53,405 nt of DNA from contig JAUCBJ010001362.1 of assembly GCA_032718475.1 (NCBI GenBank), positions 1 through 53,405 on the forward strand, given 5' to 3'. The notes under the pieces are model-generated. The model made no database searches. It was not told the origin of the DNA and saw only the letters and a list, made by a program, of their open reading frames with translations. This stretch comes from Nemertoderma westbladi. Its lineage: Eukaryota > Animalia > Xenacoelomorpha. The stretch's first letter is position 1; each line of letters begins with the position of its first letter. Below, in pieces: positions 20,258 to 49,610 of the stretch. The translations under genes were made by a program, and so were the position numbers.

Positions 20258-20385
20258 TTTTATTGTTAAATTTCTGAATTACTTAACGCTTGTCCTTGGA
20301 CAAGCCGTAAATATAGTAGATAGATGGATTATTTGCGGCTCGTCCATAGACGAGCGTTAAGTAATCAAGAAATTTAACAATAAAA
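20258..20385. repeat. Imperfect palindrome, ~56-bp arms, each with an inner GCTCGTC..TAGACGAGC-type palindrome
   Basis: TTTTATTGTTAAATTTCT...ATTACTTAACGCT pairs with AGCGTTAAGTAAT...AGAAATTTAACAATAAAA. Confidence 0.85.
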
Positions 20386-20719
20386 CAACGTATTATAGTG
20401 TATAATGTACTTTTATCTCACTTCGGTCCCTCGTTTCAATATTTCACTAACTCGAATATGATAATAACTCGAAATAAATTTTCCAGTATTTACTAATTAT
20501 CATAGTGCGTTAAGGCTCGCCTTTACTACGTGGCTCGCATGTTCTCGCTGTTATGCCTCAGAACTAAACATTAGATATATTGTACTGTATGTCCTACTCA
20601 TCTTCACATCCAAAAAGCGACGTAGATTAGGATTTGTATGGTTTTTGACAATTTTATAATTTGCTTTATAATTTTTTATTTTCAAAAATCCTGACCTGCG
20701 AGAAAGTGGTGAAAGGTAA

Positions 20720-20925
20720 GTGTAGTTGGGTGGAAGTGAGACAATGTTGAGTGTACTGTAGTTGGGTGATAGTTGGGTGTAGTTGGGTGGAGAATTGGGT
20801 GTAGTTGGGTGAAAGTTGGGTGTTGTTGGGGGTAGTTGGGTGAAAGTTGGGTGTAGTTGGGTGAGAGTTGGGTGGAAGTGGAGTGTAGTTGGGTGAAAGT
20901 GAGTCAAAGTTGAGTGTAGTTGGTT
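20720..20925 (-). repeat. Third CACCCAACTA-type array (minus orientation) in the spacer of the long inverted repeat
   Basis: TAGTTGGGTG and AAAGTTGGGTG units. Confidence 0.9.
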
Positions 20926-21221
20926 GGAGAGTTTGGTGTTCTGTGGGACGAGTCACGCAGTCAGGGCAAGCCTTAGCGCACAATTGCAATTAGTAAAAAT
21001 AGGGCAAAATTTCATCTCCAGTCGGTCGTTCTGTCCGCTTGTCTGTCTGTAACGAAAAATTCATTCGTAAGTAACTTTTGAAGATTTTCGCCAACTGATC
21101 CACATTAAAGCCCGATGAGAAACCCCACTTGGGATCCGACTATGTAGCAACATACCTAAAGTGTGTGACATATTATTCATTCACATGTGAGAATTTAGCT
21201 TGGAAACCTCAATGTTGATCA

Positions 21222-21710
21222 GATAGACTTTGCTGATGACTTAGGAGTACTCTCAGAATCATTAGAGGGAGCCCAACGGCTCCTCAGCTCATTAGAACAT
21301 TCTGCTTCTAGTGTTTGGTCTTTTTATTACCTCCAGAAAGACCACAATTTTGACAGTTAACTTTGAAAGTCCTCAGCAAGTCTCTGATCGGATGAGCATA
21401 AGCTCAAAGGATGGTATGCTTGAGCATGTGGACAACTTCTGTTACCTGGGATCATGGATCCGGAAGTCAGGTGAGGACCTTCGAATACGTAAGGGAAAGG
21501 CATGGGCAGCCTTGAATAGGCTTTCCAGGATTTGGAAGTCACCGAGAATTAATCGGAAACTCAAGGTCCGATTATTTAGAGCAGCAGTAGTTCCAGTACT
21601 CCTCTACGGGAGTCCATGCTGGGCTCTAACTGCTGAGGACACCAAATCTCTGGATGGCACATTCACAAGAATGCTACGCCGGGTTCATTGTGTCAAGTAC
21701 AATGCACACA
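21222..21710 (+). pseudogene. Internal RTE LINE fragment (RT C-terminal part) flanked by a 27-bp direct repeat
   Basis: DFADDLGVLSE...FCYLGSWI...IRKGKAWAALNRLSRIWKS...VLLYGSPCW (ORF 21311-21742). Flanks 21195-21221 and 21711-21737 match at 26/27. Confidence 0.9.
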
Positions 21711-22099
21711 TTAGTTTGGAAACCTCAATGTTGATCACATGAGGATTTTCGAATGGGTGGAATGTCTGAAAGATTAAATACACTTCTCCCATTTCGTTGT
21801 TTGTAATAAAATAAGCTGAATATTGTCATATCCTACTGTACATATACTGTACAGTATGTACTAGAGACCACAAGCCGCGTCTATATGATTACGTTGATCA
21901 ACGTCTGCAATTCTCTACCCTAGTGTGATGAATTATTATTTCTACTACTGTAAGATCTGTAATGTATAACGATCTTATCGATTCTCATACTGTAGAGATC
22001 TTGTCCATTCTGGCATCGCCTGTATGTGAAGATCATAATAAGTTCCTTGCAGAAATTCCCTTGACCTATACAGATCTTACCAGATCCCCTTTTAGTTTA

Positions 22100-23510
22100 T
22101 CAAAAATGTAAAATGTTCTAAAATTATTGCTGTTGTTTCGTTAAAAATTAATTAATATAAAGGCCATAAAGTTCGCCCATGTGAATAATACCAGGATTTC
22201 ACTTTTCGGTCGACATTTTATTGGAATTTTATGTATGAAGATTTTTTATTTTTTTTAATTTATCTTTTTGATACGTTTCGTTTTGATACGGCTAAATTTC
22301 GTTTATTGTTTTGGTTAGATTCAGCCCTTTTGTAACCTGTGATTTTAATGAAAACCTGGGATTCTTCACATGGGGGCAACTGCAAAGTTAAATATATAAC
22401 GGCAGAAAGTGTTTACATGGGCCCAAGATTAAAATAAAGCTGCTGAAAATAATGTTACAGTTCTTTTTCTTGTATTCTATGATACATAAAGGATAATTAC
22501 ATTATTATAATTGCATTAAACATACTGTATAATATAGAACTTATGTCCATTAACTTTGTACGAATTATCTGCATTGCTATTCCCATAACAGAAGTTTCCA
22601 ATGCGATTTCGTCGTTAAGGCTGTGACGGTGACCCTCCTGTGTATCAATACCGTTTTCATTTTCACCACAATCCCATAGCGCCAGTTTAGTTTTATACTG
22701 TAGCTTGGATCGTTTGTCAATAGTCTCTGCGTCTCTCCTTTGTATATTTATTGCTAAATTCATCAATTATTCTAGAACCAACCTGCAATAAATATAAAAC
22801 GTTAGTTTGTTATTTTCATAATTGCTCAGCAGTGGGGGCAACATACAGTACATGAAACATTTATAAGCTCATATCTCAGCAATTCCTCGAGAGTTTGTTA
22901 CTGTACATATTGTAATTTGTGGAAGTTTGGTGCCATACAGTAGGTATAGTTTTGTGTAAGTTGGATGCAGAGTGGAAGTGGAAGTTGGGTGTAGTGGGGT
23001 GGAACTGTGTGGGTGTAGTTGGCTGAAAGTTGGGTGTAGTTGGGTGAAAGTTGGGTGTAGTTGGGTGTAGTTGGGTGAAAGTTGGGTGTAGTTGGGTGTT
23101 TAGGCTGACCGGAGTCATCAAAGATTGCACTGGAACTTGTCATTTTAATTACTTCTGTTAGGCCTAATTCAGTAAAATTACCAAAGAAACACTAATACCG
23201 GTAACTGAATACTGTAATATATTGCAATACAGCAAAAGTCAGTCAGTAATAACTGTTTAAACAGGGCTGCAAATCTGATGACTAACGCTGGATAAATTAT
23301 TATTTTTTAATTGTGATTAAATCACAAATATTGAAAAATAAGATTGGTTTAAAGAATTGCCTATAAAATGTTTTTACTTTTGTATTAGACCCTAAATTTT
23401 TGCATGCAAGCTCAGAATTAAATTATCTTTCGAATGATATATTACACTAAAGTGCATGTCTCGCAGTTTTGGCTAGCCAGGCACCAGGGGGGGGGGGTGG
23501 GGGCAATCAT
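22100..23510 (-). repeat. Right arm of the long inverted repeat
   Basis: Reverse complement of 18724-20010, with arm-specific segments at ~22171-22430 and ~23110-23285. Confidence 0.9.
22171..22380. mobile_element. Small MITE inserted in the right arm
   Basis: CCCATGTGAATAATACCAGG and CCTGGGATTCTTCACATGGG imperfect inverted ends; absent from the left arm. Confidence 0.55.
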
Positions 23511-24054
23511 TATGGAACACCCGGTATATCACTTTATTTTACAGTCCTGAACTATTAGTAAGATTATATTACAATTCGTTATAATTTATTACAGTACTTC
23601 AGTCCCTGTTTTTCGGGATAACGTTTAAAAACCAGTTCGAGTTCATTGGTACCAGTACGCAGTACATCATACACCTCCATTTTTATAAATATGTACCAAC
23701 CAATGTTTTTGAATTTTTATTTTAAACATTTTTGAAATATCAAAATATATTTTGCTATTATTTCATAATAAATTTTTTTTATTTTAGAATTTATTGTTTG
23801 ACAAATTTTCGCTACAGTATTGCTTCGTTTCTTTATTAAGGTCGCTGCGCCCGTTAAATACAATATCTCAAGCATAGTGAAAAGTGTTGTTTTTCAATAT
23901 TTACCATACCGGTATATCTAGTAAATTATTATTTATATTACAGAAAAAGCCCACAAGCCAATTGCAGACACCCTCTTCCAGTCACAAGTGGGATACCAAA
24001 CAAGTATAGCAAGCATCCTCACTGATAATAATGTGCGATTGATGCTCCATTCTC

Positions 24055-24400
24055 AACACTGGCACGCCTTCCCTTACTCTCCACACCATTCCCAATCCTG
24101 GCACGCCTTCCCTTACCCTCCACACCATTCCCAACCCTGGCACGCCTTCCCTTACCCTCCACACCATTCCCAATCCTGGCACGCCTTCCCCTACCCTCCA
24201 CACCATTCCCAACCCTGGCACGCCTTCCCTTACCCTCCACACCATTCCCAACCCTGGCACGCCTTCCCTTACCCTCCACACCATTCCCAATCCTGGCACG
24301 CCTTCCCTTACCCTCCACACCATTCCCAACCCTGGCACGCCTTCCCTTACCCTCCACACCATTCCCAATCCTGGCACGCCTTCCCCTACCCTCCACACCA
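24055..24400. repeat. 39-bp C-rich minisatellite (CCACACCATTCCCAAYCCTGGCACGCCTTCCCTTACCCT), about 9 copies
   Basis: Directly visible; gives 13-aa periodic ORFs on both strands. Confidence 0.95.
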
Positions 24401-24924
24401 CATCACTTCCATATCCCCTCCCTACCCCAACCCCTACCATGGAATACAGGACAGACCGTGCTCCCCCAACCAACCCTATCCCCACCCTCGTTCTGATTTA
24501 TACCCAAGTTTGTCTTCCGTCTTAATGAGTGGGATTTAGATGGAGCATCGAAGGGGCCTGTGTAGGATAATGTGTGGGTGAAGTCCGTAAGATGTGACAG
24601 TGGTATGGACTAGTGGACTCAAGTTAGATCCTAAAACGACAGGAGTAAAGACCAATTACTGTCTGGGGAACTTAATTTCTGTAATATGTTACAGAAACAG
24701 GTAATATTCCCAAGCGAAATACCAAATTATTTACTGTGTTTGTTCGCTTGTACAATGTACATCCCAGGTAACGCTGAATGTGTAAGATAAACTTTTCTGA
24801 TACATATTGCAGTTATACGGTGTCTCACCATTGTGTTGTTGTTAGTGCTTGCTAAGTTGCTACTCTAGTTGAGAGAAACGTTCCTTATATATGTTGCTTA
24901 TATATATCCCCCCCCCCCCCAATC

Positions 24925-27900
24925 CTTCCACCACCCTCCATCCCCCTTCCACCCCCTGCCCTTCCATTCCCTACTTCGACATCTCACCCAACCCCTTCCA
25001 CCACCCTTCATTCCCCTTCCACCCCCTGCCCCTCCATTCCCTACTTCGACATCTCACCCAACCCCTTCAACCACCCTACATCCCCCTTCACCCCCCTGCC
25101 CCTCCATTCTCTACTTCGACATCTCACCCAACCCCTTCCACCACCCTTCATCCCCCTTCCACCCCTGCCCCTCCATTCCCTACTTCGACATCTCACCCAA
25201 CCCCTTCAACCACCCTACATCCCCCTTCCACCCCCTGCGCCCCTCCATTCTCTACTTCGACATCTCACCCAACCCCTTCCACCACCCTTCATCCCCCTTC
25301 CACCCCCTGCGCCCCTCCATTCTCTACTTCGACATCTCACCCAACCCCTTCCACCACCCTCCATCCCCCTTCCACCCCCTGCGCCCCTCCATTCTCTACT
25401 TCGACATCTCACCCAACCCCTTCCACCACCCTCCACCCCCCTTCCACCCCCTGCGCCCCTCCATTCTCTACTTCGACATCTCACCCAACCCCTTCCACCA
25501 CCCTCCATCCCCCTTCCACCCCCTGCGCCCCTCCATTCTCTACTTCGACATCTCACCCAACCCCTTCTACCACCCTCCATCCCCCTTCCACCCCCTGCGC
25601 CCCTCCATTCTCTACTTCGACATCTCACCCAACCCCTTCCACCACCCTCCATCCCCCTTCCACCCTGCGCCCCTCCATTCTCTACTTCGACATCTCACCC
25701 AACCCCTTCCACCACCCTCCATCCCCCTTCCACCCCCTGCGCCCCTCCATTCTCTACTTCGACATCTCACCCAACCCATTCCACCACCCTCCATCCCCCT
25801 TCCACCCCCTGTCCCTCCATTCTCTACTTCGACATCTCACCCAACCCCTTCCACCACCCTCCATCCCCCTTCCACCCCCTGCGCCCCTCCATTCTCTACT
25901 TCGACATCTCACCCAACCCCTTCCACCACCCTCCATCCCCCTTCCACCCCCTGCGCCCCTCCATTCTCTACTTCGACATCTCACCCAACCCCTTCCACCA
26001 CCCTCCATCCCCCTTCCACCCCCTGCGCCCCTCCATTCTCTACTTCGACATCTCACCCAGCCCCTTCCACCACCCTCCATCCCCCTTCCCCCCCTGCCCA
26101 TCCATTCCCTACTTCGACATCTCACCCAACCCCTTCAACCACCCTACATCCCCCTTCCACCCCCTGCGCCCCTCCATTCTCTACTTCGACATCTCACCCA
26201 ACCCCTTCCACCACCCTCCATCCCCCTTCCACCCCCCTGCCCCTCCATTCCCTACTTCGACATCTCACCCAACCCCTTCCACCACCCTTCATCCCCCTTC
26301 CACCCCCTGCCCCTCCATTCCCTACTTCGACATCTCACCCAACCCCTTCAACCACCCTCCATCCCCCTTCCACCCCCTGCGCCCCTCCATTCTCTGCTTC
26401 GACATCTCACCCAACCCCTTCAACCACCCTCCATCCCCCTTCCACCCCCTGCGCCCCTCCATTCTCTACTTCGACATCTCACCCAACCCCTTCCACCACC
26501 CTCCATCCCCCTTCCACCCCCCTGCGCCCCTCCATTCTCTACTTCGACATCTCACCCAACCCCTTCAACCACCCTCCATCCCCCTTCCACCCCCTGCGCC
26601 CCTCCATTCTCTACTTCGACATCTCACCCAACCCCTTCCACCACCCTCCATCCCCCTTCCACCCCCCTGCGCCCCTCCATTCTCTACTTCGACATCTCAC
26701 CAAACCCCTTCAACCACCCTCCATCCCCCTTCCACCCCCTGCGCCCCTCCATACTCTACTTCGACATCTCACCCAACCCCTTCCACCACCCTCCATCCCC
26801 CTTCCACCCCCTGCGCCCCTCCATTCTCTACTTCGACATCTCACCCAACCCCTTCCACCACCCTCCATCCCCCTTCCACCCCCTGCGCCCCTCCATTCTC
26901 TACTTCGACATCTCACCCAACCCCTTCCACCACCCTCCATCCCCCTTCCACCCCCTGCGCCCCTCCATTCTCTACTTCGACATCTCACCCAACCCCTTCC
27001 ACCACCCTCCATCCCCCTTCCACCCCCTGCGCCCCTCCATTCTCTACTTCGACATCTCACCCAACCCCTTCCACCACCCTCCATCCCCCTTCCCCCCCTG
27101 CCCATCCATTCCCTACTTCGACATCTCACCCAACCCCTTCAACCACCCTACATCCCCCTTCCACCCCCTGCGCCCCTCCATTCTCTACTTCGACATCTCA
27201 CCCAACCCCTTCCACCACCCTCCATCCCCCTTCCACCCCCCTGCCCCTCCATTCCCTACTTCGACATCTCACCCAACCCCTTCCACCACCCTTCATCCCC
27301 CTTCCACCCCCTGCCCCTCCATTCCCTACTTCGACATCTCACCCAACCCCTTCAACCACCCTCCATCCCCCTTCCACCCCCTGCACCCCTCCATTCTCTG
27401 CTTCGACATCTCACCCAACCCCTTCAACCACCCTCCATCCCCCTTCCACCCCCTGCGCCCCTCCATTCTCTACTTCGACATCTCACCCAACCCCTTCCAC
27501 CACCCTCCATCCCCCTTCCACCCCCCTGCGCCCCTCCATTCTCTACTTCGACATCTCACCCAACCCCTTCAACCACCCTCCATCCCCCTTCCACCCCCTG
27601 CGCCCCTCCATTCTCTACTTCGACATCTCACCCAACCCCTTCCACCACCCTCCATCCCCCTTCCACCCCCCTGCGCCCCTCCATTCTCTACTTCGACATC
27701 TCACCAAACCCCTTCAACCACCCTCCATCCCCCTTCCACCCCCTGCGCCCCTCCATACTCTACTTCGACATCTCACCCAACCCCTTCCACCACCCTCCAT
27801 CCCCCTTCCACCCCCTGCGCCCCTCCATTCTCTACTTCGACATCTCACCCAACCCCTTCCACCACCCTCCATCCCCCTTCCACCCCCCTGCGCCCCTCCA

Positions 27901-28311
27901 TTCTCTACTTCGACATCTCACCCAACCCCTTCAACCACCCTCCATCCCCCTTCCACCCCCTGCGCCCCTCCATTCTCTACTTCGACATCTCACCCAACCC
28001 CTTCCACCACCCTCCATCCCCCTTCCACCCCCCTGCGCCCCTCCATTCTCTACTTCGACATCTCACCCAACCCCTTCCACCACCCTCCATCCCCCTTCCA
28101 CCCCCCTGCGCCCCTCCATTCTCTACTTCGACATCTCACCCAACCCCTTCCACCACCCTCCATCCCCCTTCCACCCCCCTGCGCCCCTCCATTCTCTACT
28201 TCGACATCTCACCCAACCCCTTCCACCACCCTCCATCCCCCTTCCACCCCCCTGCGCCCCTCCATTCTCTACTTCGACATCTCACCCAACCCCTTCAACC
28301 ACCCTCCATCC
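24925..28311. repeat. C-rich satellite, 72-bp unit with 70- and 73-bp variants, block 1
   Basis: Unit CCACCACCCTCCATCCCCCTTCCACCCCCTGCGCCCCTCCATTCTCTACTTCGACATCTCACCCAACCCCTT; 1004-bp higher-order period visible from rare variants. Confidence 0.98.
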
Positions 28312-29105
28312 TGTTCCCGACTATAGTCAGTATTTCATCGTACAGTATGGCCAAAAATTCTTATCACCTGTTATTGCCGTAGAAATTCCATTTTATTGAG
28401 AGAGAATGTCATGACGTCATAACATGACGTCACAAAAGTAAAAGTATAGTGTATCTTGCATGAAGGCATGCTCGCCTCATGTTCACGAGAGAATTATCAT
28501 ATCCTATAATGAGTGAGTGAATATTAGAACCATTTAAAGTGAAAGGACACATTGAGTGAGAGGCAACAATGGAAGTGTAAGGCATCCTCTGGGATTTACC
28601 CTCACCTGTGTATATTGGTGTATAACGTATTATATTTTGGCCCCATTTTCTATGGCCTATTGTTTAGTAAACCAATCCCAGATGGCTTTCCTTCCATTCA
28701 TATATGACAAGAGCAGGATGACATTAGATTCATTCTGTCGATATAACTTTGTAGAAACGTTACATAGTTTTCACCGTTCGTTCGTACGTTCGTTCTTTCG
28801 TTCGTTCGTTTATTGTTTGATTCGACTTGTTTCACGAACTGAACTTTTTGGACTCTATTCAGTGACCTATTGGTCACTGAACTTAACTATTATTGTTCTA
28901 ATTGAATTGAACGTACAGTGCATTTGTACTGTACGTGTTATAAATCATTTGTTTGAAGGAAGGAAGCGTCATCATGTGATTGTGCACTGGTGCCGTTTAT
29001 ACATATTGAATATTAAAGTAACTAGGACTTGAACTGAGTTTTCTTGACGAACGAAACGGACGCGTAGAAACGACGTTCTTAGAGGGAAAGAATATCGACG
29101 GAACA
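28312..29105 (+). mobile_element. Solo LTR (794 bp) of the BEL/Pao element
   Basis: TGTTCC...GGAACA ends, CATCC on both sides (28307-28311, 29106-29110), about 99% identical to the LTRs of 30975-41609. Confidence 0.97.
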
Positions 29106-30974
29106 CATCCCCCTTCCACCCCCTGCGCCCCTCCATTCTCTACTTCGACATCTCACCCAACCCCTTCCACCACCCTCCATCCCCCTTCCACCCCCCTGCG
29201 CCCCTCCATTCTCTACTTCGACATCTCACCCAACCCCTTCAACCACCCTCCATCCCCCTTCCACCCCCTGCGCCCCTCCATACTCTACTTCGACATCTCA
29301 CCCAACCCCTTCCACCACCCTCCATCCCCCTTCCACCCCCTGCGCCCCTCCATTCCCTACTTCGACATCTCACCCAACCCCTTCAACCACCCTCCATCCC
29401 CCTTCCACCCCCTGCGCCCCTCCATTCTCTACTTCGACATCTCACCCAACCCCTTCAACCACCCTCCACCCCCCTTCCACCCCCTGCGCCCCTCCATTCT
29501 CTACTTCGACATCTCACCCAACCCCTTCCACCACCCTCCATCCCCCTTCCACCCCCTGCCCCTCCATTCTCTACTTCGACATCTCACCCAACCCCTTCCA
29601 CCACCCTTCATCCCCCTTCCACCCCCTGCCCCTCCATTCTCTACTTCGACATCTCACCCAACCCCTTCCACCACCCTCCATCCCCCTTCCACCCCCCTGC
29701 GCCCCTCCATTCTCTACTTCGACATCTCATCCAACCCCTTCCACCACCCTCCATCCCCCTTCCACCCCCTGCCCCTCCATTCTCTACTTCGACATCTCAC
29801 CCAACCCCTTCCACCACCCTTCATCCCCCTTCCACCCCCTGCCCCTCCATTCTCTACTTCGACATCTCACCCAACCCCTTCCACCACCCTCCATCCCCCT
29901 TCCACCCCCCTGCGCCCCTCCATTCTCTACTTCGACATCTCACCCAACCCCTTCCACCACCCTCCATCCCCCTTCCTCCCCTGCCCATCCATTCCCTACT
30001 TCGACATCTCACCCAACCCCTTCAACCACCCTACATCCCCCTTCCACCCCCTGCGCCCCTCCATTCTCTACTTCGACATCTCACCCAACCCCTTCCACCA
30101 CCCTCCATCCCCCTTCCACCCCCTGCCCCTCCATTCCCTACTTCGACATCTCACCCAACCCCTTCCACCACCCTTCATCCCCCTTCCACCCCCTGCCCCT
30201 CCATTCCCTACTTCGACATCTCACCCAACCCCTTCAACCACCCTCCATCCCCCTTCCACCCCCTGCGCCCCTCCATTCTCTACTTCGACATCTCACCCAA
30301 CCCCTTCAACCACCCTCCATCCCCCTTCCACCCCCTGCGCCCCTCCATTCTCTACTTCGACATCTCACCCAACCCCTTCCACCACCCTCCATCCCCCTTC
30401 CACCCCCCTGCGCCCCTCCATTCTCTACTTCGACATCTCACCCAACCCCTTCAACCACCCTCCATCCCCCTTCCACCCCCTGCGCCCCTCCATTCTCTAC
30501 TTCGACATCTCACCCAACCCCTTCCACCACCCTCCATCCCCCTTCCACCCCCCTGCGCCCCTCCATTCTCTACTTCGACATCTCACCAAACCCCTTCAAC
30601 CACCCTCCATCCCCCTTCCACCCCCTGCGCCCCTCCATACTCTACTTCGACATCTCACCCAACCCCTTCCACCACCCTCCATCCCCCTTCCACCCCCTGC
30701 GCCCCTCCATTCTCTACTTCGACATCTCACCCAACCCCTTCCACCACCCTCCATCCCCCTTCCACCCCCCTGCGCCCCTCCATTCTCTACTTCGACATCT
30801 CACCCAACCCCTTCAACCACCCTCCATCCCCCTTCCACCCCCTGCGCCCCTCCATTCTCTACTTCGACATCTCACCCAACCCCTTCCACCACCCTCCATC
30901 CCCCTTCCACCCCCCTGCGCCCCTCCATTCTCTACTTCGACATCTCACCCAACCCCTTCAACCACCCTCCATCC
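29106..30974. repeat. 72-bp satellite, block 2
   Basis: Same unit, between the solo LTR and the 5' LTR. Confidence 0.98.
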
Positions 30975-31725
30975 TGTTCCCGACTATAGTCAGTATTTCA
31001 TCGTACAGTATGGCCCAAAATTCTTATCACCTGTTATTGCCGTAGAAATTCCATTTTATTGATAGAGAATGTCATGACGTCATAACATGACGTCACAAAA
31101 GTAAAAGTATAGTGTATCTTGCATGAAGGCTTGCTCGCCTCATGTTCACGAGAGAATTATCATATCCTATAATGAGTGAGTGAATATTAGAACCATTTAA
31201 AGTGAAAGGACACATTGACTGAGAGGCAACAATGGAAGTGTAAGGCATCCTCTGGGATTTACCCTCACCTGTGTATATTGGTGTATAACGTATTATATTT
31301 TGGCCCCATTTTCTATGGCCTATTGTTTGGTAAACCAATCCCAGATGGCTTTCCTTCCATTCATATATGACAAGAGCAGGATGACATTAGATTCATTCTG
31401 TCGATATAACTTTGTAGAAACGTTACATAGTTTTCACCGTTCGTTCGTACGTTCGTTCTTTCGTTCGTTCGTTTATTGTTTGATTCGACTTGTTTCACGA
31501 ACTTAACTATTATTGTTCTAATTGAACTGAACGTACAGTGCATTTGTACTGTACGTGTTATAAATCATTTGTTTGAAGGAAGGAAGCGTCATCATGTGAT
31601 TGTGCACTGGTGCCGTTTATACATATTGAATATTAAAGTAACTAGGACTTGAACTGAGTTTTCTTGACGAACGAAACGGACGCGTAGAAACGACGTTCTT
31701 AGAGGGAAAGAATATCGACGGAACA
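30975..31725 (+). repeat. 5' LTR (751 bp, with a 43-bp internal deletion)
   Basis: TGTTCC...GGAACA. Lacks GAACTTTTTGG...GGTCACTGAACT, which is present in the other two LTRs. Confidence 0.97.
31075..31095. promoter_or_regulatory. Two perfect CRE palindromes (TGACGTCA) in LTR U3
   Basis: ATGACGTCATAACATGACGTCAC, present in all three LTR copies. Confidence 0.5.
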
Positions 31726-31727
31726 AA

Positions 31728-31738
31728 GTGAAAACTAT
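31728..31738 (+). promoter_or_regulatory. Non-tRNA primer-binding site GTGAAAACTAT, complementary to LTR 31427-31437
   Basis: Begins 2 nt after the LTR terminal CA, has no TGG, and is the exact reverse complement of ATAGTTTTCAC in the LTR. Confidence 0.7.
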
Positions 31739-31789
31739 CTCGTTGAAAACGACAACCGAATTAACGAATTAGAATAGATTTGATCTTCA

Positions 31790-34700
31790 ATGGCTAGCGC
31801 CAACCGAACGCCATCAACGAACCATCCATCAGTGGAAACGAGCTCAGACCTCATTGACATGAGGGATGAGCCCAGACGAGTATCAGTCGTGGATGGTAGG
31901 ATCGAGTCGGGCCGAGAACTCGCCCGAACCCCGAGAACGAACCCAACACAAGCGGAGGGCGCCTGGCAACCAACAACGAGCCCAGGCGGTGTGGCACGCT
32001 CAATTCCTGGGGCTGCTAGAGCAAGCATCGGCGCTCGCTTACGCACTAGCAGCTTGGTGGGAACTGGGCAGGGGCCACCCACTCAACCACAACGAGCTGT
32101 CCTCCCAACTCACGAACATGAACCAGCCAATATTCGACACGAACCTGAAAGAACCTCGACACAGACAACACGACCCAAAGACCCCCAGATCCAACGATCA
32201 TCACGATCACAACGAAGTGCTGTTCTGATTGACCCCCAACAACCAGAGATCCTTAAACGACGATCTCAACGAGCAGAACTGACTCTTGTTTGGAACTGTT
32301 GAGAACCCAACTGGTGAACTGCCGGTGGAACCGGAGCTAAGTATACTTTTAAATAAAATAACGGTCTACATAGATCATTTACGTGCGTGCGGAGAGGAAC
32401 AAAGGGCTGTTGAGATTGAAGACCGGGTCAAAGCCCAGTGTCAATCTCGAGAGACCCGTTTCAATCCAAACGTTAGGAGGGAACCCAGAGGAACCCAGAG
32501 TGAAGATCTGAGGGAGGGAGACCCGACCCCAAGCATTATCACCGAGGTGCCACGCGTTGATCCAGAGGATTCTGTGTCCCAGGTGACACCAGACTCCATC
32601 TGGGAGAACGTCCCTAGGCAGAATGATCGTGTTTCAGGGGTCGGATCTACACTCATCCACGATCAATCGAATGAGAACGAATGCAGGGAATGAACAAGCA
32701 AGAATGGAGCTAGCGGATGGCATGAGAGAACAAGAGCGTGAGTTAGAGAGAGAAAATAAAAGGAGAGTAAGTGAACGTGAACTGGAAAGAATAGAAAAAG
32801 AGGAACGTGAGGAACGTGAGAAAAGGGAATGTGACAAAAGGGAACGAGAGAGAAGGGAACGAGTACAAAAGATAGCAGATGAGATGGAACGGGATAAAAG
32901 GGAAGGTGAGATTGAAAGGGAACGGGCAAGGGCCAAGAGGGAAATGGTTCGGCTAAATGCAGAACAGTGCATATTACGTATGGAAGAGGAGCCATCTCAA
33001 CTTGGAATTTCCCAGAGGGGAAATAAAACCAAGTGTGATTCAATGAATATACTAACTACTGTAGAACCCAATAACCTAACTACTGTAGAACCCAATAACC
33101 GAGAAATTGAAAGTAACCTTCTAGCCATAGAAACACCCCGTTATCCATCACCCGTACGTAGAATATCAGCGCGTACAGTAAAGAAACCTGTTATTACATC
33201 AAAACCCGAATATTGTATTAGTAGCAGAACACCAGCAATGACAGGGGGCTTTAATAGCACGTTAGGCAACTCTGCTTCAAAGGGCCCCAGAGGGGCTAAG
33301 AACCAAACATATAATTTGGAAAGCCCAACAAATACTGTAAATGCTGCAGTTACCAGCTGTATACATAGAACAGGGCACCATATTGAAACCCCTGTGTCAA
33401 TCATCCAGTACACTGGTGACGAAATGTCAGAACAAGCAGGCATGAATCATAACATTCAGACTGAGGTACCGGTATCGGATTGCAGCAGTAGGCCTAATAG
33501 ACGGCTGCATTCGACCGGTCTACCGGTAACACATTCTGCGCCAGTTTGCGGTACACCAGATTACAGCTGCAGTGATCAGCTACACGCGACTGGTCCGCCG
33601 CTATCCAATTCTATAGGCCTACCTGTATGCAGTACTCCAGACTGCACAGCATGCAGTAGGCAGAATCCCGATTATTATTATTTACCGGTATCTAGCCAGA
33701 ACCATAGGCCTAATGCTAATAGTAATACTCAAATACCGGTATCTGAAAGTTTAGATAGGCATAATCTTAATGTACCGGTATCTTATGATTATAGGCCAAG
33801 TTATGTAGGCTTACCTAACAGCCTGATGCATACCGGTACTGTTAATCATACATGTAGCCCTGCTGATGTAGGTCAAAATCAACATCAGTCTATAGACCAC
33901 CCTATACCTGTATACCATCCGAATTAAATCAAAATATCGGTATCCAATATGAACCAAGGTATGGCTATGGAACACCATTGAGCAGTAGGCCTACCGGTAA
34001 CCCAAGCCATTTAAACCCCAGAGCCGAGGAATTTCTACCCGTCCCCATAGGCGAAGTAGGAATGCCAGATGGCCAATATAAATACAAAACCCGTAGCGAA
34101 GTGAGTGAAACCCCACAGCAACGGGCAGTAACCTTTTCAAATCAAATAAATAATGGACCCGGATTATCAAAAATACCGAGTCTAGCGTACCCATCTATAG
34201 GAGCGCAAAGACAACAGAATAAAAATAATACCGCTGGCTACAATTACACAGGAGAAGCAGCCCCACATGGACCCCCTTATGTACAAGCAGGAAGGGTCCC
34301 TCAATGTTATCAGAGCGGAGGAGAGAGTGAGTTAAGTCATATGGCGGCAATAACAGACGCCATAAAAGCCAAGCTAGAACTGCCACAGGCTAAACCGTTT
34401 ACCTTCAGTGGAGAATACCCGGAAGAATATATTCAGTTTCGACAGCTATATACCACTGAAATTCTACTGAAACATAACCTGTCAGAAGCACAGAAGATGA
34501 CCTACCTGATGGTTTACACAACTGGAAAAGCAAAGGAAGTTGTTAGACAATATGCAGGCCTAACAGATGGTTTGCGACTAGCATGGGAAGCCATTGAAAA
34601 GCGATATGGAAATCCTTCACGTATAATGCAGGCAACAATCAACAAATTGGTCACTAACAAACAAATCACCACGACTGCCGAGTTTAGGGACTTTACAGAA

Positions 34701-37700
34701 AGGGTAAACAAAGCCCTGGTTGCCTTGAAGGAACTCGATATGCCGCATGAGTTGAATGGCATCCATAACATGCGAAAAATAATTGAACTAATTCCCTATT
34801 GGGCGAGGAACGCATGGAGAAAGGAAGCAGCACGGACTCGCAGCCAACTGAACCGCGAACCAACCATGAACCAACTGGCGAAATTCCTTTCAGATCAAAC
34901 CGAGATACAAGATGACCCTGTATTCGCAGAGGGACTACTATCAGCTGGTATCGCTGAGCGCCGGGACCGATCACATTCACGGGATGACTCAACCCGACAA
35001 TCGAGAGCAGATTACCCGCGAAAAACAAATATGCTGGTACCAAAGAAATCATTTGAATCTAACAAAGGGATGATAAAACCTGAACGAGAGCAAGTCTACA
35101 CAACAACGTCGACTAGTCCGATGAAGAGCCTACAATCGGACAAACAAGTCCGTTTCTCCAGCTACTCCCCAAAGCCACATACCCCAGATAGAGGTTCCCA
35201 GGAGTTGGTATACACCCTTGCAACCTGTGATCCAAGCGCAAAGTGCTATCTACATCCAAATGCAAGGGACCATCAATTCGTGCAGTGTACCCAATGGATA
35301 AATGCTGCTGCGGATGAAAAATGGGACTATTTAAAGAAGAATGGACTGTGTAGGAGATGCTATGGGCGTGGCAACATTGGACGCGACTGTCCGCGCAACT
35401 CCAACACCAGGCGTGAACCCAGAACATATGAACGATCCAGATCATACTCACCCAGAGGAGCGAGCGGGCTGACACCCCTCACAAAGGAAACTAAAAATCT
35501 AAAACCCCATAGTAACCGAGGAGATACTGATACTACTACTGTTAACCAAAATAAAAATGAGAATCTAACATCTAAGACAGGGGGGGATCAGACCCAACAT
35601 CCTAACCCTGCCTGGATGGCAAGATACAAGGATCCCCAGGGATCTGAAGTGAGTGGAACCACTGTTAATAAGACCCAGGCAGTGACCCACATGGCGACAT
35701 GTATGTCCCTGTCAGGGATTAAAGTGTACCTCAAAATTGTACCAGTAAAAGTAATGTATAAAAATGAAAAACAAGTAACAACATATGCCTTCCTAGATGA
35801 TGGTGCGACTATAAGTCTAATAAGTCGTACCCTTGCTGATACTCTGGGAATGGAGGGAACCAGAACTAAGTTAGGCCTGGTCATAGTGGGCCACCAGACA
35901 ACATCAATGGGGGCCATGAGTACCAAGTGCTCCATAGGTGCTCTGGAAGGCCGAGGGACACTCATCATTCATGATGCTGAGGTAGAAGTAATACCAGACG
36001 TTGGAGTTAACTGTACCCAACCAGATGAGGTAGAAATTGAGAGATACCAACACTTAAAGGGAATTAACTTAACAAACTTGCACATTGACATACCCTATGT
36101 GACTGTACTGCTTGGGATGAACAATCCTGAGGCACATGAAGAACTGGAAGTTAGGAAAGGTATCAACCCCGGGAAGACACCATGGGGAAAGCTAACACCA
36201 TTTGGGTGGTGTGTGACTGGACCACTGGAAACAACAGACTATATACACAACAAAACGAAGCGAGGTCTGGTGAATCATGTGGAAATAACTAAAGACTTAG
36301 AGACATTACTGAATAGGGACTGTGAGGGCCTTCATGACAACACATTGGGAGACTCTCCAGAGGACCGTAGGGCCTTACAGACTCTTAAGGACTCAATACA
36401 ACTGATAGATGGACACTACGAGGTAGACATGTTGTGGAAGGACCCCAATGAACGGCTTGAAAACAACTACATAATGGCGAGAAATCGTCTGAGAAAGTTA
36501 AAAGAAAAACTGAGGAAACTACCAGCAGCAGAAGAAGCCATAAACAAGGCAATATGTAAGTATATAGAAAGGGGCTGGGCAATAGAACTTCCAGAGGACA
36601 TACAGGAAACTGACCGGACGTATTACTTACCGATACACACAGTGTGGGAACCAAGAAAGAACAAATACCGAGTAGTACATGATGCCGCAGCGAAGTACCA
36701 TGGAAAATCGCTAAATGATTACCTTGTTCGTGGACCCAATATATACAACACAGGACTAGACGTTCTTCTAAGATTCAGGAAGGGAATATTTGCTTTCACA
36801 TGCGATGTGGAAGCAATGTTCCACCAGGTACGAGTGAACCCAAAAGACAGCAACAGCTTACGGTTCCTTTGGTATGAAGGGGAGCTAGGCTCAAAGGAAC
36901 CCAAAATCTACAAAATGATTGTCCATATTTTTGGTGCTAATTCATCTCCATGTGCGACAACATACGCTTTGAGAGAGACTACAAATGGCGAGAATCCTGC
37001 AATCCAGAATCCATCAGCAGATACAGTGGAAATGATTCGAGAACATTTTTATGTTGATGACGGACATGAGACAGGAAACTCAGAGGAGGAGTTGGTCAGG
37101 ATTGCCAAGGAGGCTAAACTTTGTTTAGCGGGGGGAGGATTCAACCTGACCAAGTTTTTATCAAATTCCGAATATATTACCAACTGCATGACAGACGGGA
37201 CCCAACAGGAGCCACTGAACAAACTGACCACAGAACCAGAATACAAACCAATGATAGAAGCTGATGGAGACAGTGACGAAGTTCGAGCTTTAGGGATAGT
37301 CTGGAACCGAAGAACAGATGCATTTGAGTACCATATGGCGAAAATGAAAAGAGGGAAACATACTAAAAGGGAATATCTATCCTTTGTTGCCCGGATCTAT
37401 GACCCAATGGGTCTACTCTCAAGGATCACAGTTGTTGGTCGACAAATACTTAGGGAAGCCCATCTACTGAAAGTAGGTTGGAATGATGAACTTCCCGAAG
37501 GAATAAGGAAGAAATGGGACAAATGGATGGATAGTTTACAACTACTAGATAAGATCACGATAGATCGGGCCTACTTTCCCGACGGAAACATGGAAAACTT
37601 AGAGATACATATCTTCAGTGACGCCTCAGACAAAGGCTATGGAGCAGTAGCCTATGTGGTTCAAAGACAGAATAATAGAAGGAGGGCACGGGTTGCATAT

Positions 37701-39643
37701 AGTAAGGCGAGACCGGCCCCATTAAAAATCGTCACAATTCCTAGGATATAACTCATGGCAGCTTTATTAGGAGTGAGAATAGGAAGACAGTTAGGAAAAG
37801 CAATTGGAAATATACAAACCTGGTATTTTTGGACTGACTCTACCACTGTTATTCATTATATCAGGACTGACGCACGAAGATTCAAAGTCTTTGTTGCTAA
37901 TCGAGTTGCAGAAATCCAAGAACTAACAGACATCAACAACTGGAACTATTGTCCAACGTCGATAAATCCCGCAGACCAAATATCGAGAGGAATAATTGGA
38001 ACACAGAAGAAGGAAGACGAAGATCTGTGGCAATATGGCCCGTGTACCTCAAGGATGAAGGAAGATGGCCTGAATTTCCAGGAGGTCCACAGGCTCTACT
38101 GGAAGGAGTCAAAGGGGATGACCCGGAATTACGAAGGGAAGTAGTTATGTCAACCACTATAAGAGACAAACCAACAATGACAGAGCGAATACTCCACCAT
38201 GATCGCTCATGGTATGACACTAAACGGCGTGTAGCGCGATGGAGGATGTGGATGGCTTGGATACGAACACGGAAAAGTGGAGGGCCCCGACCAGAACTAC
38301 ATGTGGAAAATGCAGGGATGGCTATCATAAAGTACATTCAACAGGAGGGCTTCCCAGATGAAGTGGAGAAACTAGTGGTTGGAAAACCTATCCCGAAAGA
38401 CAGCAACCTGAGACCATTGAGCCCCATTATGAAGGATGGAGTAGTCTGTATGGGCTCCCGGCTGGGGAATGCTCCAGGAGGGATTGTCCCTGATTGCCCC
38501 ATATTGATCCCGAAAGACTCAGTTATCGTGGATAAGATTATACACGATTCCCATGAAGCCTCACAACATGGAGGTGTGGAAGCAACACTCACGAGGATAC
38601 GGAGGAAATTCTGGATTCCAGCAGTCAGGAGAAGAGTGAAGGGCTGGGTGGAGAAGTGTGTTACCTGTCGCACCATTCGTCGACAGAGGGTGGAGCAGGT
38701 GATGGCACCTTTACCTGCGGAGCGGATAACACCCTATGAGCCACCATTCACAAATTGTGGTGTTGACCTCTTTGGTCCTATTAATGTCAAAGTGGGCCGA
38801 CGATACGAGAAACGATGGGGTTCCATATTCGTGTGTTACGCCTCAAGGGCTGTTGCCCTGGAATTAGTTAAAGATGCAAGCGCAAACTCATTTATTAATG
38901 CACTCAGAAGATTCATTACAATGTGTGGAGCAGTGCGAAGGATTAGCTCTGATAATGGGTCGAATTTCATTGGAGCTAATCGAGAACTTCAAGATCTCTA
39001 CCGGATTGCGCAAACACCTGCTATTGAAGAACATGCAAGGAAACAAGGTGTCAAGTGGAAATTCCATACCCCTTATGCCCCCCATTCTTCAGGAGTCTGG
39101 GAAAGACTTGTAGGAAGTGCTGAGCGGCTCTTAGAGGCAAGCACCCGAAATCGATGCCTTGATGAGGACGCATTCCGCACAGTGTTAGCAGAAACAGAAG
39201 CAACAATGAATGCGCGGCCGCTATGTGCGTTAAATGATGACCCGAATTCTTACGAGGTTTTGACACCAAACCATCTACTATTGAGGAGACCAGTCCAGGT
39301 TTTGAGTAAAGACCTGTTTGACGAGAATGACCTATATTCCAGAAAGACATGGAAAGTAATACAAGTAGTATCAAAGATATTCTGGCGCCAATGGGTAACT
39401 GAATATCTACCAACCCTTCACAAGCGACACAAGTGGCGGGTGGAAAGGAGAGATCTGAAACCGGGAGATCTAGTCATAGTGACAGATGACACCCTAGCGA
39501 AACACGATTGGGTGATGGCCAGAGTAGTGAATTGCCTGCAGGGACCCGATGGGCACACTAGAACAGTCGAATTGAAGACGAGTGGAAAGAAACTTGTAAG
39601 ACGTCCGATAAGCAAATGTTGCTTATTGGAGCAAACTGTCTAA
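31790..39643 (+). pseudogene. gag-pol: BEL/Pao gag-pol polyprotein, broken by frameshifts and a nonsense codon
   Basis: Coiled-coil N-terminal Gag; capsid-like LPQAKPFTFSG...AWEAIEKRYG; Cys/His knuckles (CYLH..H..C, CRRC..C); protease YAFLDDGATISLI; RT YYLPIH, RVVHDAAA, DVEAMFHQV, FGANSSP, FYVDD; RNase H IFSDAS, IPRI*LMAA (TAA at 37749-37751), WTDS, NPAD; integrase H..H..CVTC, GVDLFGP, SDNGSNF, WERLV. Frame changes near 32300, 32650, 33930 and 38040. Confidence 0.95.
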
Positions 39644-40805
39644 TTTATGCCAAAGGCATGGGGGAGGGTCCATGTATACCTCAAATCGTACCTAAATTAA
39701 GATTCATAATATATTATCAAATTTACAAATGAGTAGAAGAAAACTGAACTAGTACTTTAGGATAGGCTGATACCAGTATATAGGTACATTGACTGAATGG
39801 TAACCTGGGGTGAAATTTATGTTTCCGGAACATAAAATGTACGTGTGAAATGAATGAATGGTTATATGACGCAATACTGAACACAGCCCTAATGAACTTG
39901 CAACTTCTCAGTTGTGGAATGAACTGAAGGAATGAATGAATGGAACAATTGTAGTATAAAATGAACTTAAATTATGGGAAACATAGATTTCATTAGCAGC
40001 AACCATAGAACATGAAACCAGCAAATTCCAGAACGTATAATAAAACTTTATAGTGTAACTGACCATTTAGTCAATTATGGATATTATACGTTATTAATGA
40101 TAGTACTTGATCTGGATATCTGGATATAGAAGAATTATCATATATAGGCCTAACTAGCTTATTAGAATTAATCTCAGAGGAGCCGTAATGAGGACTGTGA
40201 TGTGTAAAGGATGCGGTGGCGAAGTGGTACCACGGGGAGAAACATTTAAAACTTGGCTTATGAACTGTCTTGTCTCAGGGTACGAAATGGAGGAACGCGA
40301 AAGTATCGTGACCGCGAATTCTGATAGAAGGGAAGGATTCCCCACCGCAGGAGACCCCATGGGGGGAGTGACCATGGTAGCAGCGACTAGTGGTGACCGT
40401 GGATGGAGCGTTTATGTTCGATTGTTATTACAAAAATAAACGAGGGACCCCATAATCATGAAAGGGAAATACATTATTTGATATGCTCTAACCATATATA
40501 TATATATATAATTGAATGGCACTACTTTTGCAATATGTACCTAGGATGAACTAACTAGCGATTTATCTTGAAGCATTATTGAACTACGAAATATTTCGTA
40601 TATCGGTATTTTAAAAGGACTTGAATGAATTGTAATGAATTTATAGAGGGAAATAGGAAACCACTCATGGTTTGGCAAACCATGAGCGTGTAATGTTGCC
40701 TGGGGGCCTACATCGCGGAATGACAGTTGATATATATATCGTTTTCGGACTCAAACTTTTTAATATAGTCGTGATTTCCTCGAGAAACCATTCATAGTGG
40801 TTTCT

Positions 40806-40813
40806 GGGGGGAG
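40806..40813 (+). promoter_or_regulatory. Polypurine tract GGGGGGAG
   Basis: Ends 2 nt before the 3' LTR start, the canonical plus-strand primer position. Confidence 0.9.
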
Positions 40814-40815
40814 TT

Positions 40816-41609
40816 TGTTCCCGACTATAGTCAGTATTTCATCGTACAGTATGGCCCAAAATTCTTATCACCTGTTATTGCCGTAGAAATTCCATTTTAT
40901 TGAGAGAGAATGTCATGACGTCATAACATGACGTCACAAAAGTAAAAGTATAGTGTATCTTGCATGAAGGCTTGCTCGCCTCATGTTCACGAGAGAATTA
41001 TCATATCCTATAATGAGTGAGTGAATATTAGAACCATTTAAAGTGAAAGGACACATTGACTGAGAGGCAACAATGGAAGTGTAAGGCATCCTCTGGGATT
41101 TACCCTCACCTGTGTATATTGGTGTATAACGTATTATATTTTGGCCCCATTTTCTATGGCCTATTGTTTGGTAAACCAATCCCAGATGGCTTTCCTTCCA
41201 TTCATATATGACAAGAGCAGGATGACATTAGATTCATTCTGTCGATATAACTTTGTAGAAACGTTACATAGTTTTCACCGTTCGTTCGTACGTTCGTTCT
41301 TTCGTTCGTTCGTTTATTGTTTGATTCGACTTGTTTCACGAACTGAACTTTTTGGACTCTATTCAGTGACCTATTGGTCACTGAACTTAACTATTATTGT
41401 TCTAATTGAACTGAACGTACAGTGCATTTGTACTGTACGTGTTATAAATAATTTGTTTGAAGGAAGGAAGCGTCATCATGTGATTGTGCACTGGTGCCGT
41501 TTATACATATTGAATATTAAAGCAACTAGGACTTGAACTGAGTTTTCTTGACGAACGAAACGGACGCGTAGAAACGACGTTCTTAGAGGGAAAGAATATC
41601 GACGGAACA
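40816..41609 (+). repeat. 3' LTR (794 bp)
   Basis: TGTTCC...GGAACA followed by CATCC. Confidence 0.97.
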
Positions 41610-44520
41610 CATCCCCCTTCCACCCCCTGCGCCCCTCCATTCTCTACTTCGACATCTCACCCAACCCCTTCCACCACCCTCCATCCCCCTTCCACCCCCC
41701 TGCGCCCCTCCATTCTCTACTTCGACATCTCACCCAACCCCTTCAACCACCCTCCATCCCCCTTCCACCCCCTGCGCCCCTCCATACTCTACTTCGACAT
41801 CTCACCCAACCCCTTCCACCACCCTCCATCCCCCTTCCACCCCCTGCGCCCCTCCATTCCCTACTTCGACATCTCACCCAACCCCTTCAACCACCCTCCA
41901 TCCCCCTTCCACCCCCTGCGCCCCTCCATTCTCTACTTCGACATCTCACCCAACCCCTTCAACCACCCTCCACCCCCCTTCCACCCCCTGCGCCCCTCCA
42001 TTCTCTACTTCGACATCTCACCCAACCCCTTCCACCACCCTCCATCCCCCTTCCACCCCCTGCCCCTCCATTCTCTACTTCGACATCTCACCCAACCCCT
42101 TCCACCACCCTTCATCCCCCTTCCACCCCCTGCCCCTCCATTCTCTACTTCGACATCTCACCCAACCCCTTCCACCACCCTCCATCCCCCTTCCACCCCC
42201 TGCGCCCCTCCATTCTCTACTTCGACATCTCACCCAACCCCTTCCACCACCCTCCATCCCCCTTCCACCCCCTGCCCCTCCATTCTCTACTTCGACATCT
42301 CACCCAACCCCTTCCACCACCCTTCATCCCCCTTCCACCCCCTGCCCCTCCATTCTCTACTTCGACATCTCACCCAACCCCTTCCACCACCCTCCACCCC
42401 CTTCCACCCCCTGCCCCTCCATTCTCTACTTCGACATCTCACCCAACCCCTTCCACCACCCTTCATCCCCCTTCCACCCCATGCCCCTCCATTCCCTACT
42501 TCGACATCTCACCCAACCCCTTCAACCACCCTCCATCCCCCTTCCACCCCCTGCGCCCCTCCATTCTCTACTTCGACATCTCACCCAACCCCTTCAACCA
42601 CCCTCCATCCCCCTTCCACCCCCTGCGCCCCTCCATTCCCTACTTCGACATCTCACCCAACCCCTTCCACCACCCTCCACCCCCCTTCCACCCCCTGCCC
42701 CTCCATTCTCTACTTCGACATCTCACCCAACCCCTTCCACCACCCTTCATCCCCCTTCCACCCCCTGCCCCTCCATTCCCTACTTCGACATCTCACCCAA
42801 CCCCTTCCACCACCCTCCACCCCCCTTCCACCCCCTGCCCCTCCATTCCCTACTTCGACATCTCACCCAACCCCTTCCACCACCCTCCATCCCCCTTCCA
42901 CCCCCTGCGCCCCTCCATTCTCTACTTCGACATCTCACCCAACCCCTTCCACCACCCTCCACCCCCCTTCCACCCCCTGCCCCTCCATTCCCTACTTCGA
43001 CATCTCACCCAACCCCTTCCACCACCCTTCATCCCCCTTCCACCCCCTGCCCCTCCATTCCCTACTTCGACATCTCACCCAACCCCTTCCACCACCCTCC
43101 ATCCCCCTTCCACCCCCTGCGCCCCTCCATTCTCTACTTCGACATCTCACCCAACCCCTTCCACCACCCTCCATCCCCCTTCCACCCCCTGCGCCCCTCC
43201 ATTCTCTACTTCGACATCTCACCCAACCCCTTCCACCACCCTCCATCCCCCTTCCACCCCCTGCGCCCCTCCATTCTCTACTTCGACATCTCACCCAACC
43301 CCTTCCACCACCCTCCACCCCCCTTCCACCCCCTGCCCCTCCATTCTCTACTTCGACATCTCACCCAACCCCTTCCACCACCCTCCATCCCCCTTCCACC
43401 CCCTGCGCCCCTCCATTCTCTACTTCGACATCTCACCCAACCCCTTCCACCACCCTCCACCCCCCTTCCACCCCCTGCCCCTCCATTCCCTACTTCGACA
43501 TCTCACCCAACCCCTTCCACCACCCTTCATCCCCCTTCCACCCCCTGCCCCTCCATTCCCTACTTCGACATCTCACCCAACCCCTTCCACCACCCTCCAC
43601 CCCCCTTCCACCCCCTGCGCCCCTCCATTCTCTACTTCGACATCTCACCCAACCCCTTCCACCACCCTCCATCCCCCTTCCACCCCCTGCGCCCCTCCAT
43701 TCTCTACTTCGACATCTCACCCAACCCCTTCCACCACCCTCCACCCCCCTTCCACCCCCTGCCCCTCCATTCCCTACTTCGACATCTCACCCAACCCCTT
43801 CCACCACCCTTCATCCCCCTTCCACCCCCTGCCCCTCCATTCCCTACTTCGACATCTCACCCAACCCCTTCCAACACCCTTCATCCCCCTTCCACCCCCT
43901 GCCCCTCCATTCTCTACTTCGACATCTCACCCAACCCCTTCAACCACCCTTCATCCCCCTTCCACCCCCTGCGCCCCTCCATTCTCTACTTCGACATCTC
44001 ACCCAACCCCTTCCACCACCCTTCATCCCCCTTCCACCCCCTGCCCCTCCATTCCCTACTTCGACATCTCACCCAACCCCTTCCACCACCCTTCATCCCC
44101 CTTCCACCCCCTGCCCCTCCATTCTCTACTTCGACATCTCACCCAACCCCTTCAACCACCCTTCACCCCCCTGCCCCTCCATTCTCTACTTCGACATCTC
44201 ACCCAACCCCTTCCACCACCCTCCATCCCCCTTCCACCCCCTGCGCCCCTCCATTCTCTACTTCGACATCTCACCCAACCCCTTCCACCATCCTCCATCC
44301 CCCTTCCACCCCCTGCGCCCCTCCATTCTCTACTTCGACATCTCACCCAACCCCTTCCACCACCCTCCATCCCCCTTCCACCCCCTGCCCCTCCATTCCC
44401 TACTTCGACATCTCACCCAACCCCTTCCACCACCCTCCATCCCCCTTCCACCCCCTGCGCCCCTCCATTCCCTACTTCGACATCTCACCCAACCCCTTCA
44501 ACCACCCTACATCCCCATTC
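41610..44520. repeat. 72-bp satellite, block 3
   Basis: Same unit; richer in 70-bp variants distally. Confidence 0.98.
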
Positions 44521-49569: not shown

Positions 49570-49610
49570 GAACGAACTTACTATTATTGACTGAAACTTA
49601 ATTGTCTTAA

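Follow-up and report, generated by a model that had tools for sequence, protein, structure and literature searches.

A BEL/Pao retrotransposon lineage likely primed by its own RNA, with a primer that is split by a predicted intron in most members

How does an LTR retrotransposon begin reverse transcription when no tRNA-type primer-binding site (PBS) follows its 5′ LTR? The question arises from a BEL/Pao element in a 53,405-nt stretch of DNA from Nemertoderma westbladi (contig JAUCBJ010001362.1; the whole of this stretch is referred to here as the window). According to the ICTV, the PBS of the Belpaoviridae consists of 18 nt complementary to the 3′ end of a host tRNA, replication is tRNA-primed, and the replication process is poorly understood (PMC8742986). 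An initial annotation of the window proposed that this element belongs to a lineage that primes from its own RNA. From comparisons with related elements, we consider positions 31728–31738 to be likely the PBS of such a self-primed BEL/Pao lineage, whose primer is in most cases predicted to be joined by splicing and is uninterrupted in the window copy; the predicted intron splitting the primer in most relatives is the main novelty beyond the initial annotation.

The element and its surroundings

A domain search identifies the element as BEL/Pao (DUF1759, Peptidase_A17, Integrase_H2C2, rve, and DUF5641, plus a weak Asp_protease_2 match, E 0.0075). The motifs YVDD (37050) and FSDAS (37614) are present, the Pao-type domain order (gag, PR, RT, RH, IN) is kept, and the element has LTRs, a polypurine tract, and a target-site duplication:

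28312..29105, + strand: solo LTR, with a copy of the primer segment at 28764–28774; most likely a duplicate of the same insertion
30970..30974, + strand: target-site duplication CATCC (5 bp), second copy at 41610–41614; within the 72-bp satellite
30975..31725, + strand: 5′ LTR, 751 bp, TG..CA, with a terminal inverted repeat; the other two LTRs are 43 bp longer
31784..33927, + strand: 5′ coding region, in several frames (frameshifted)
33867..37751, + strand: gag-pol piece with DUF1759, a Cys/His knuckle-like motif, aspartic protease, RT, and Peptidase_A17/RNase H
37901..39643, + strand: integrase piece (H2C2, rve, DUF5641), in a frame that differs from that of the RNase H end
40806..40813, + strand: polypurine tract, preceding the 3′ LTR
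40816..41609, + strand: 3′ LTR, 794 bp, with a copy of the primer segment at 41268–41278

Two scanned pieces of the 5′ coding region gave no Pfam match, and the integrase piece has no match to a chromodomain; with domains that are those of BEL/Pao, the element is not of Ty3/gypsy chromovirus ancestry. Protein relatives of the element are 31–44% identical to it, and most of the named ones belong to aquatic animals; the named homologues with E < 1e-90 are from animals and have the same domains. The window copy is broken, in that its coding sequence lies in several frames and the gag-pol piece terminates at a stop within the RNase H region, so its own primer site may no longer be functional. Between its two LTRs are 3 substitutions and one 43-bp gap, from which we take the insertion to be young; across all three LTR copies, there are 3–7 substitutions. 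The solo LTR and the 3′ LTR have 591 exact bases of flank in common (the next best of 97 satellite sites has 176), which most likely makes the solo LTR a duplicate of the same insertion; on this ground, target preference for the satellite is rejected as its origin.

The surroundings are rich in repeats. The element lies inside a 72-bp C-rich satellite (24910–28311, 29106–30974, and 41610–44520) with extreme GC skew (about −0.87), whose long open frames derive from the repeat itself and in which a block duplication left the solo LTR. Other tandem arrays occupy 3611–4627 (315 bp), 5769–6392 (21 bp), 19160–23116 (10–11 bp units), 24008–24478 (39 bp), and 49011–49621 (42 bp units). Between the integrase piece and the 3′ LTR, about 1.2 kb (39644–40815) contains several perfect hairpins and no frame longer than 93 codons; one frame scanned there gave no env-like match. 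Elsewhere in the window are another reverse transcriptase fragment (9404–9820, + strand; RVT_1, E 9e-8), which is unrelated to the primer finding, and a weak DUF6451 match (21296–21739, + strand; E 8e-6) that may be a degenerate retroelement and lies in a region with a second copy at about 11206.

An 11-nt complement between LTR and leader

Two short segments carry the proposal:

31427..31437, + strand: predicted self-primer segment, complementary to the PBS at every base; CG comes next, as in 12 of 23 such elements
31728..31738, + strand: predicted PBS, GTGAAAACTAT, 2 nt past the LTR and without TGG; starts with GT, as in 18 of 23 such elements

The initial annotation had located the LTR end at 31725, an AA spacer, and these two segments, all of which hold, and its TATAA (31405), ATTAAA (31632), and three R-U5 helices sit where it put them. 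As it reported, no TGG follows the 5′ LTR, so the site is not the complement of a host tRNA 3′ end that the ICTV describes. It had further pointed to conservation of the 11-mer in all three LTRs: copies do begin at 31427, 28764, and 41268, but they supply no independent evidence, since the LTRs are near-identical and the solo LTR is a duplicate. With 11 nt at offset 2, the site falls within a published in silico criterion for self-priming, given in the accessible text of PMC6317226 as a complement of at least 10 bp starting 0–5 bp past the LTR. The window LTR contains no spliced match with an intron minimum of either 50 or 30 nt.

Could the match be accidental, even if relatives of the element are self-primed? 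Among dinucleotide shuffles of the LTR, 23 of 20,000 reach a match of at least 11 nt at an offset of up to 2, and 68 of 20,000 do so at an offset of up to 5, which puts the chance of a match at this a priori position at P 0.001–0.003; none of 250 decoy windows reaches 11 nt. On the side of chance is that 4 of the 9,060 positions of the internal region start an LTR match of at least 11 nt: one is the PBS itself and two are a single overlapping word, so that, over the 9 kb of the internal region, LTR matches of 11–12 nt turn up at two further places. The placement of the window element on trees is also not firm (see below). Given the P value, and given that the window carries the signature of the group (the GT start and the CG after the primer), we regard coincidence as most improbable.

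Among the contig variants listed for four DNA runs (a table that is complete for two of them), no other letters occur in the primer segment or the PBS. A TTCG-type microsatellite lies right after the primer segment (31438–31480); contigs from the four runs have a form of it that is 12 nt shorter, with the 11-mer intact. In runs X2 and X3, a diverged LTR subfamily tracks window positions 31306–31434 and departs at 31434.

Relatives and their predicted primers

Searching with an integrase alignment yielded 78 metagenome loci, and an RT alignment yielded 28 loci from a genome collection (L080–L107), whose contigs, filed as bacterial genome records, are most likely host animal DNA in bacterial bins; in a viral collection, the integrase alignment returned one unrelated locus and the RT alignment none. 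The leaders of these relatives are of two kinds, those with TGG and those without. Of the latter, a few have a contiguous 11-nt complement, and in most the complement is split by a GT...AG segment of the LTR that begins like a splice donor and is rich in pyrimidines at its end. We therefore scored loci by a fixed rule: an exact match of at least 10 nt, starting 0–5 nt past the LTR, either unbroken or joined across a GT-AG intron of at least 50 nt, each side contributing 3 nt or more. This rule was fixed after the leaders of the discovery set had been read, and the second set was scored without altering it; several LTR ends were set by eye, with the sequence already seen. Scoring covered 22 of the 78 metagenome loci (dropped were the near-duplicates L010, L017, L023, L075, and L077, the non-TGG loci L016, L037, L058, and L064, whose LTRs are unreadable, and 47 others without a readable LTR end) and 10 of the 28 genome-collection loci.

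Of the 24 readable relatives without TGG, 20 pass, each with an exact complement of 10–16 nt in its own LTR; in 16 of the 20, this complement forms only when a GT-AG intron-like segment within the LTR is skipped, and in four it is uninterrupted. The discovery set contributes 14 of 17 (3 contiguous and 11 spliced; 10–16 nt) and the second set 6 of 7 (1 contiguous and 5 spliced). None of the eight TGG-type elements passes the rule, and 10 nt is reached by just 29 of 4,500 decoy windows (0.6%) and by 3 of 306 swapped PBS-LTR pairs, two of these three being sister families. Where the LTR end was set by LTR-LTR alignment (L004, L013, L018, L029, and L083–L086), seven of eight non-TGG elements pass. 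As to the remaining relatives, L062 has no match under the rule, L085 is one base short, and L048 and L053 pass only if introns of 37–38 nt are allowed, a change made after seeing them. The predicted introns of these last two (L048 337–374 and L053 181–217), which are related elements, have an unusual donor, GTTTGT, in common. If any deletion is permitted, two-part matches of 10–13 nt often arise by chance, and the GT-AG match is among the longest in 10 of 17 elements; thus, the signal depends on the splice rule.

Counting the window element, the 20 passing relatives, L048, and L053, there are 23 matching elements, the set to which the GT and CG counts listed above refer. The paired site starts 0–5 nt past the LTR end in all 23, and a poly(A) signal lies at or past the primer end in 16 (a count for which no null was computed). 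Their PBS 10-mers include 21 distinct sequences, so no single tRNA can account for them. The PBS might still bind a host tRNA half or internal tRNA fragment, with the LTR match incidental; a glutamate tRNA cut in the anticodon loop, which we take to be a candidate, may fit the window PBS in part. The tRNA calls in 54 loci of other hosts number three, none of them Glu. Priming by half-tRNAs and by internal tRNA segments is described for Ty1/copia lineages (in the accessible portions of PMC6317226 and PMC5445492), which lends the idea some plausibility; it leaves unexplained, however, the exact LTR match in the window (P about 0.003), the 21 different 10-mers that each match their own LTR, and the compensatory changes at splice junctions described below, and we hold it to be very unlikely. 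A tRNA-like primer encoded by the element is not supported: an ARAGORN scan of the window detected no tRNA, and the sole Rfam hit was a chance match (E 0.27).

Sister elements change on both sides of the pairing. The LTRs of L084 and L086 are much alike and share a homologous donor (at 1381 in L084, by alignment, where another donor gives an equally long match), and their exon ends, CAC versus TAA, face the PBS triplets GTG versus TTA. L020, which is contiguous, and L022, which is spliced, group as sisters on both trees, with differences at 3 paired positions, and L048 and L053 differ at 2. Because the site in the DNA stays complementary to an exon-exon junction, the best explanation is that spliced RNA pairs at the PBS. 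The initial annotation had suggested looking in related families for conserved, covarying complementarity between LTR and PBS; the outcome is strongly positive, and its core proposal, that this BEL/Pao lineage self-primes, is supported at the sequence level by the 20 of 24 relatives together with these compensatory changes.

The two kinds of leader also separate phylogenetically, on trees whose rows are unnamed loci and include no references from named clades (Sinbad, Sparrow, Surcouf, Suzu, Tas, BEL, Pao, Dan, or Flow). On the integrase tree (56 rows, without the short L085 and L086), all self-type loci and the window element fall on one side of a branch with support of 97, and all nine TGG rows fall on the other; on the RT-RNase H tree (44 rows), and likewise on a reduced integrase tree (37 rows), one change of state separates self-type from TGG-type. 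The four contiguous relatives are scattered among the spliced ones (4 changes on both trees), a pattern that fits repeated intron loss, with its direction unproven on these unrooted trees. The window element itself forms a long branch (1.4 and 2.37), and grouping it with TGG-type elements survives an AU test (p 0.446), so that its membership in the lineage rests more on the signature than on the tree. The window element most likely belongs, as a copy without the intron, to a self-priming BEL/Pao lineage in which the primer is usually made by splicing. As a separate observation, two TGG-type elements (L096 and L097) have the same target duplication, GTACC, which hints at target preference.

Start site, proposed mechanism, and known systems

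Where the RNA begins bears on how the primer would be made, and the following signals are relevant:

31362..31369, + strand: candidate TATA box, the best consensus-like match upstream of the primer and the sole one; 65 nt before the primer
31396..31407, + strand: 12-nt segment of a rival helix, complementary (one G-U) to U5 31712–31723; predicted to displace the primer helix for RNA starts at 31380–31396
31405..31409, + strand: TATAA of the initial annotation; weak consensus, 22 nt before the primer
31439..31442, + strand: predicted 5′ arm of an R-U5 helix, pairing with 31721–31724 and stacked beside the primer helix
31632..31637, + strand: ATTAAA, candidate polyadenylation signal, 194 nt past the primer end

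The usual spacing from TATA box to start site is about 30 nt. The TATAA at 31405, which had been taken to place the start near 31427, is a poor match to the consensus, and the usual spacing would put the start inside the 11-mer. Nor is the primer, as first supposed, likely to be the first 11 nt of the RNA: the primers of relatives span a predicted splice junction, and a consensus-like TATA motif, present upstream of the primer in 10 of the 23 elements, is at its nearest 49–221 nt away. Judged from these motifs, the primer appears to be internal rather than the RNA 5′ end, and a start away from 31427 is, on the same grounds, compatible with self-priming. A strict counterpart of Tf1, with the start at about 31427 and the first 11 nt as primer, would be a sub-case of self-priming that differs only in the start. 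Folding, which the initial annotation had recommended, speaks for it to the extent that in RNA starting at 31427 the 11-mer is predicted to pair with the PBS (z −2.2; 3 of 100 shuffles are as good) and the rival helix is avoided. Set against this are the TATAA just 22 nt upstream, the relatives’ junction-spanning primers with only 3–9 nt on the upstream side, and the distance of the relatives’ TATA motifs, which together reduce the strict arrangement to a minority possibility.

In the predicted ensemble, the primer helix has a probability of 0.92–0.99 for RNA starts at 31403–31431 and of 0.92–0.97 for starts at 31360 and 31200. For starts at 31380–31396, where the best TATA motif suggests that the RNA may begin, the model favors the helix between 31396–31407 and U5, leaving the primer helix at 0.02–0.04; the two competing folds are about 3 kcal/mol apart. 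This second U5 complement (31396–31407 with 31712–31723) resembles the terminal inverted repeat of the LTR; it may act as a switch or be left over from an older LTR end. Among the three R-U5 helices in the initial annotation, only GTTC:GAAC is predicted to coexist with the primer helix (0.95), whereas the other two drop to 0.02 each. As for a Tf1-like R-U5 stem, a 4-bp helix is predicted in the window, where pairing between the post-primer segment and the U5 end beats swapped partners (1/22), but family-wide the pairing is marginal (1,063 of 20,000 permutations; p 0.053).

The competition between two mutually exclusive helices, depending on the start, is what might be expected if the LTR-PBS pairing were real and selected but served as an RNA structure or switch (for splicing-dependent packaging, dimerization, or control of translation), with some other RNA or a protein acting as primer; covariation, moreover, shows pairing and not priming. 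We think this unlikely, because in 23 of 23 elements the pairing starts 0–5 nt past the LTR, where a primer must sit, and because the paired site occurs where the TGG site is absent, with no other primer site evident. It is the position of the site, adjoining the LTR end, that makes the pairing point to priming.

Self-priming by the element’s own RNA could then proceed as follows. Transcription would begin within the LTR, tens of bases ahead of the primer segment. In relatives that carry the intron, which would be cap-proximal, splicing would remove it from the 5′ LTR copy and leave it in the 3′ copy, so that it is inherited; normal splicing would have to be confined to the 5′ copy, because survival of the intron requires it. 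The primer segment would anneal to the PBS, and the RT/RNase H of the element, by analogy with Tf1/Tf2, would cut just 3′ of the duplex (here after 31437) and extend that end; the cut-site context AC/CG, with the cut at the slash, is common in the group. Strong-stop DNA would move to the 3′ repeat, which would span the region from the cut to the poly(A) site. Intron-less copies such as that in the window would arise when the 3′ copy is spliced too. On balance, we favor the broader view that a large BEL/Pao branch of aquatic animals dropped tRNA priming once, that the spliceosome builds its primer, with pairing at the PBS open to the spliced 5′ LTR copy alone so that splicing licenses its replication, and that repeated loss of the intron gave rise to intron-less copies such as that in the window.

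If this is true, it would be a third origin of self-priming, and one in which a replication primer is assembled by splicing, and a common branch of animal LTR retrotransposons would be independent of host tRNA. Silencing by tRNA fragments should then miss this branch, as would annotation that relies on the PBS. A primer that comes into being only through splicing would link retrotransposition to the host’s control of splicing, and it prompts the question of how an LTR can keep an intron.

Neither self-priming nor a spliced primer in BEL/Pao elements turned up in the literature searched, which consisted mostly of titles and the beginnings of abstracts, with subscription journals, Repbase reports, and supplements lying outside it, so an earlier mention of BEL/Pao self-priming may exist in print. 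The accessible main text of three BEL/Pao surveys (PMC554778, PMC3118150, and PMC6238403) contains no statement on a PBS or tRNA, and that of PMC8220671 mentions the PBS only generically. With the Belpaoviridae as profiled by the ICTV, the window element has in common its domain set and order, LTRs, and polypurine tract (PMC8742986); the tRNA-type PBS of that profile is absent from the window element and at least 20 relatives, and TGG-type relatives (8 scored) are found as well.

Self-priming itself has been reported or predicted, in the portions available of PMC6317226, PMC4600332, PMC5341516, PMC5445492, and PMC3601003, for Tf1/sushi, Tcn1, and copia TAR elements. Tf1/Tf2/Tj1, Tf1/sushi, and Tcn1 elements, as far as those excerpts describe them, resemble the window element in lacking a tRNA site and in having a short LTR segment that complements a site just past the LTR. 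The self-primer of Tf1-type elements is described as cut free by RT (excerpts of PMC5341516 and PMC4600332), and for Tf2, a cut by RT/RNase H 3′ of the primer duplex is described (PMC5341516, in part). The Tf1 group, however, belongs to Ty3/gypsy, a different superfamily from BEL/Pao, and unlike in Tf1, the primer of the window lineage seems to be internal rather than at the very 5′ end of the RNA. R-U5 pairing, which is part of Tf1-type priming, is only marginal across the window’s family, and the GT-AG intron that splits the primer in most relatives is a feature not described for Tf1-type groups in the excerpts at hand. For the TAR lineage of plant Ty1/copia elements (Houba and Osr-1), self-priming was likewise predicted from LTR-PBS complementarity (PMC6317226, accessible text); in contrast to the window lineage, these are copia elements of plants with a contiguous primer and, in that text, no reported splice junction. 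Because the TAR lineage, so described, lies outside the Tf1 group, independent origins of self-priming have a precedent.
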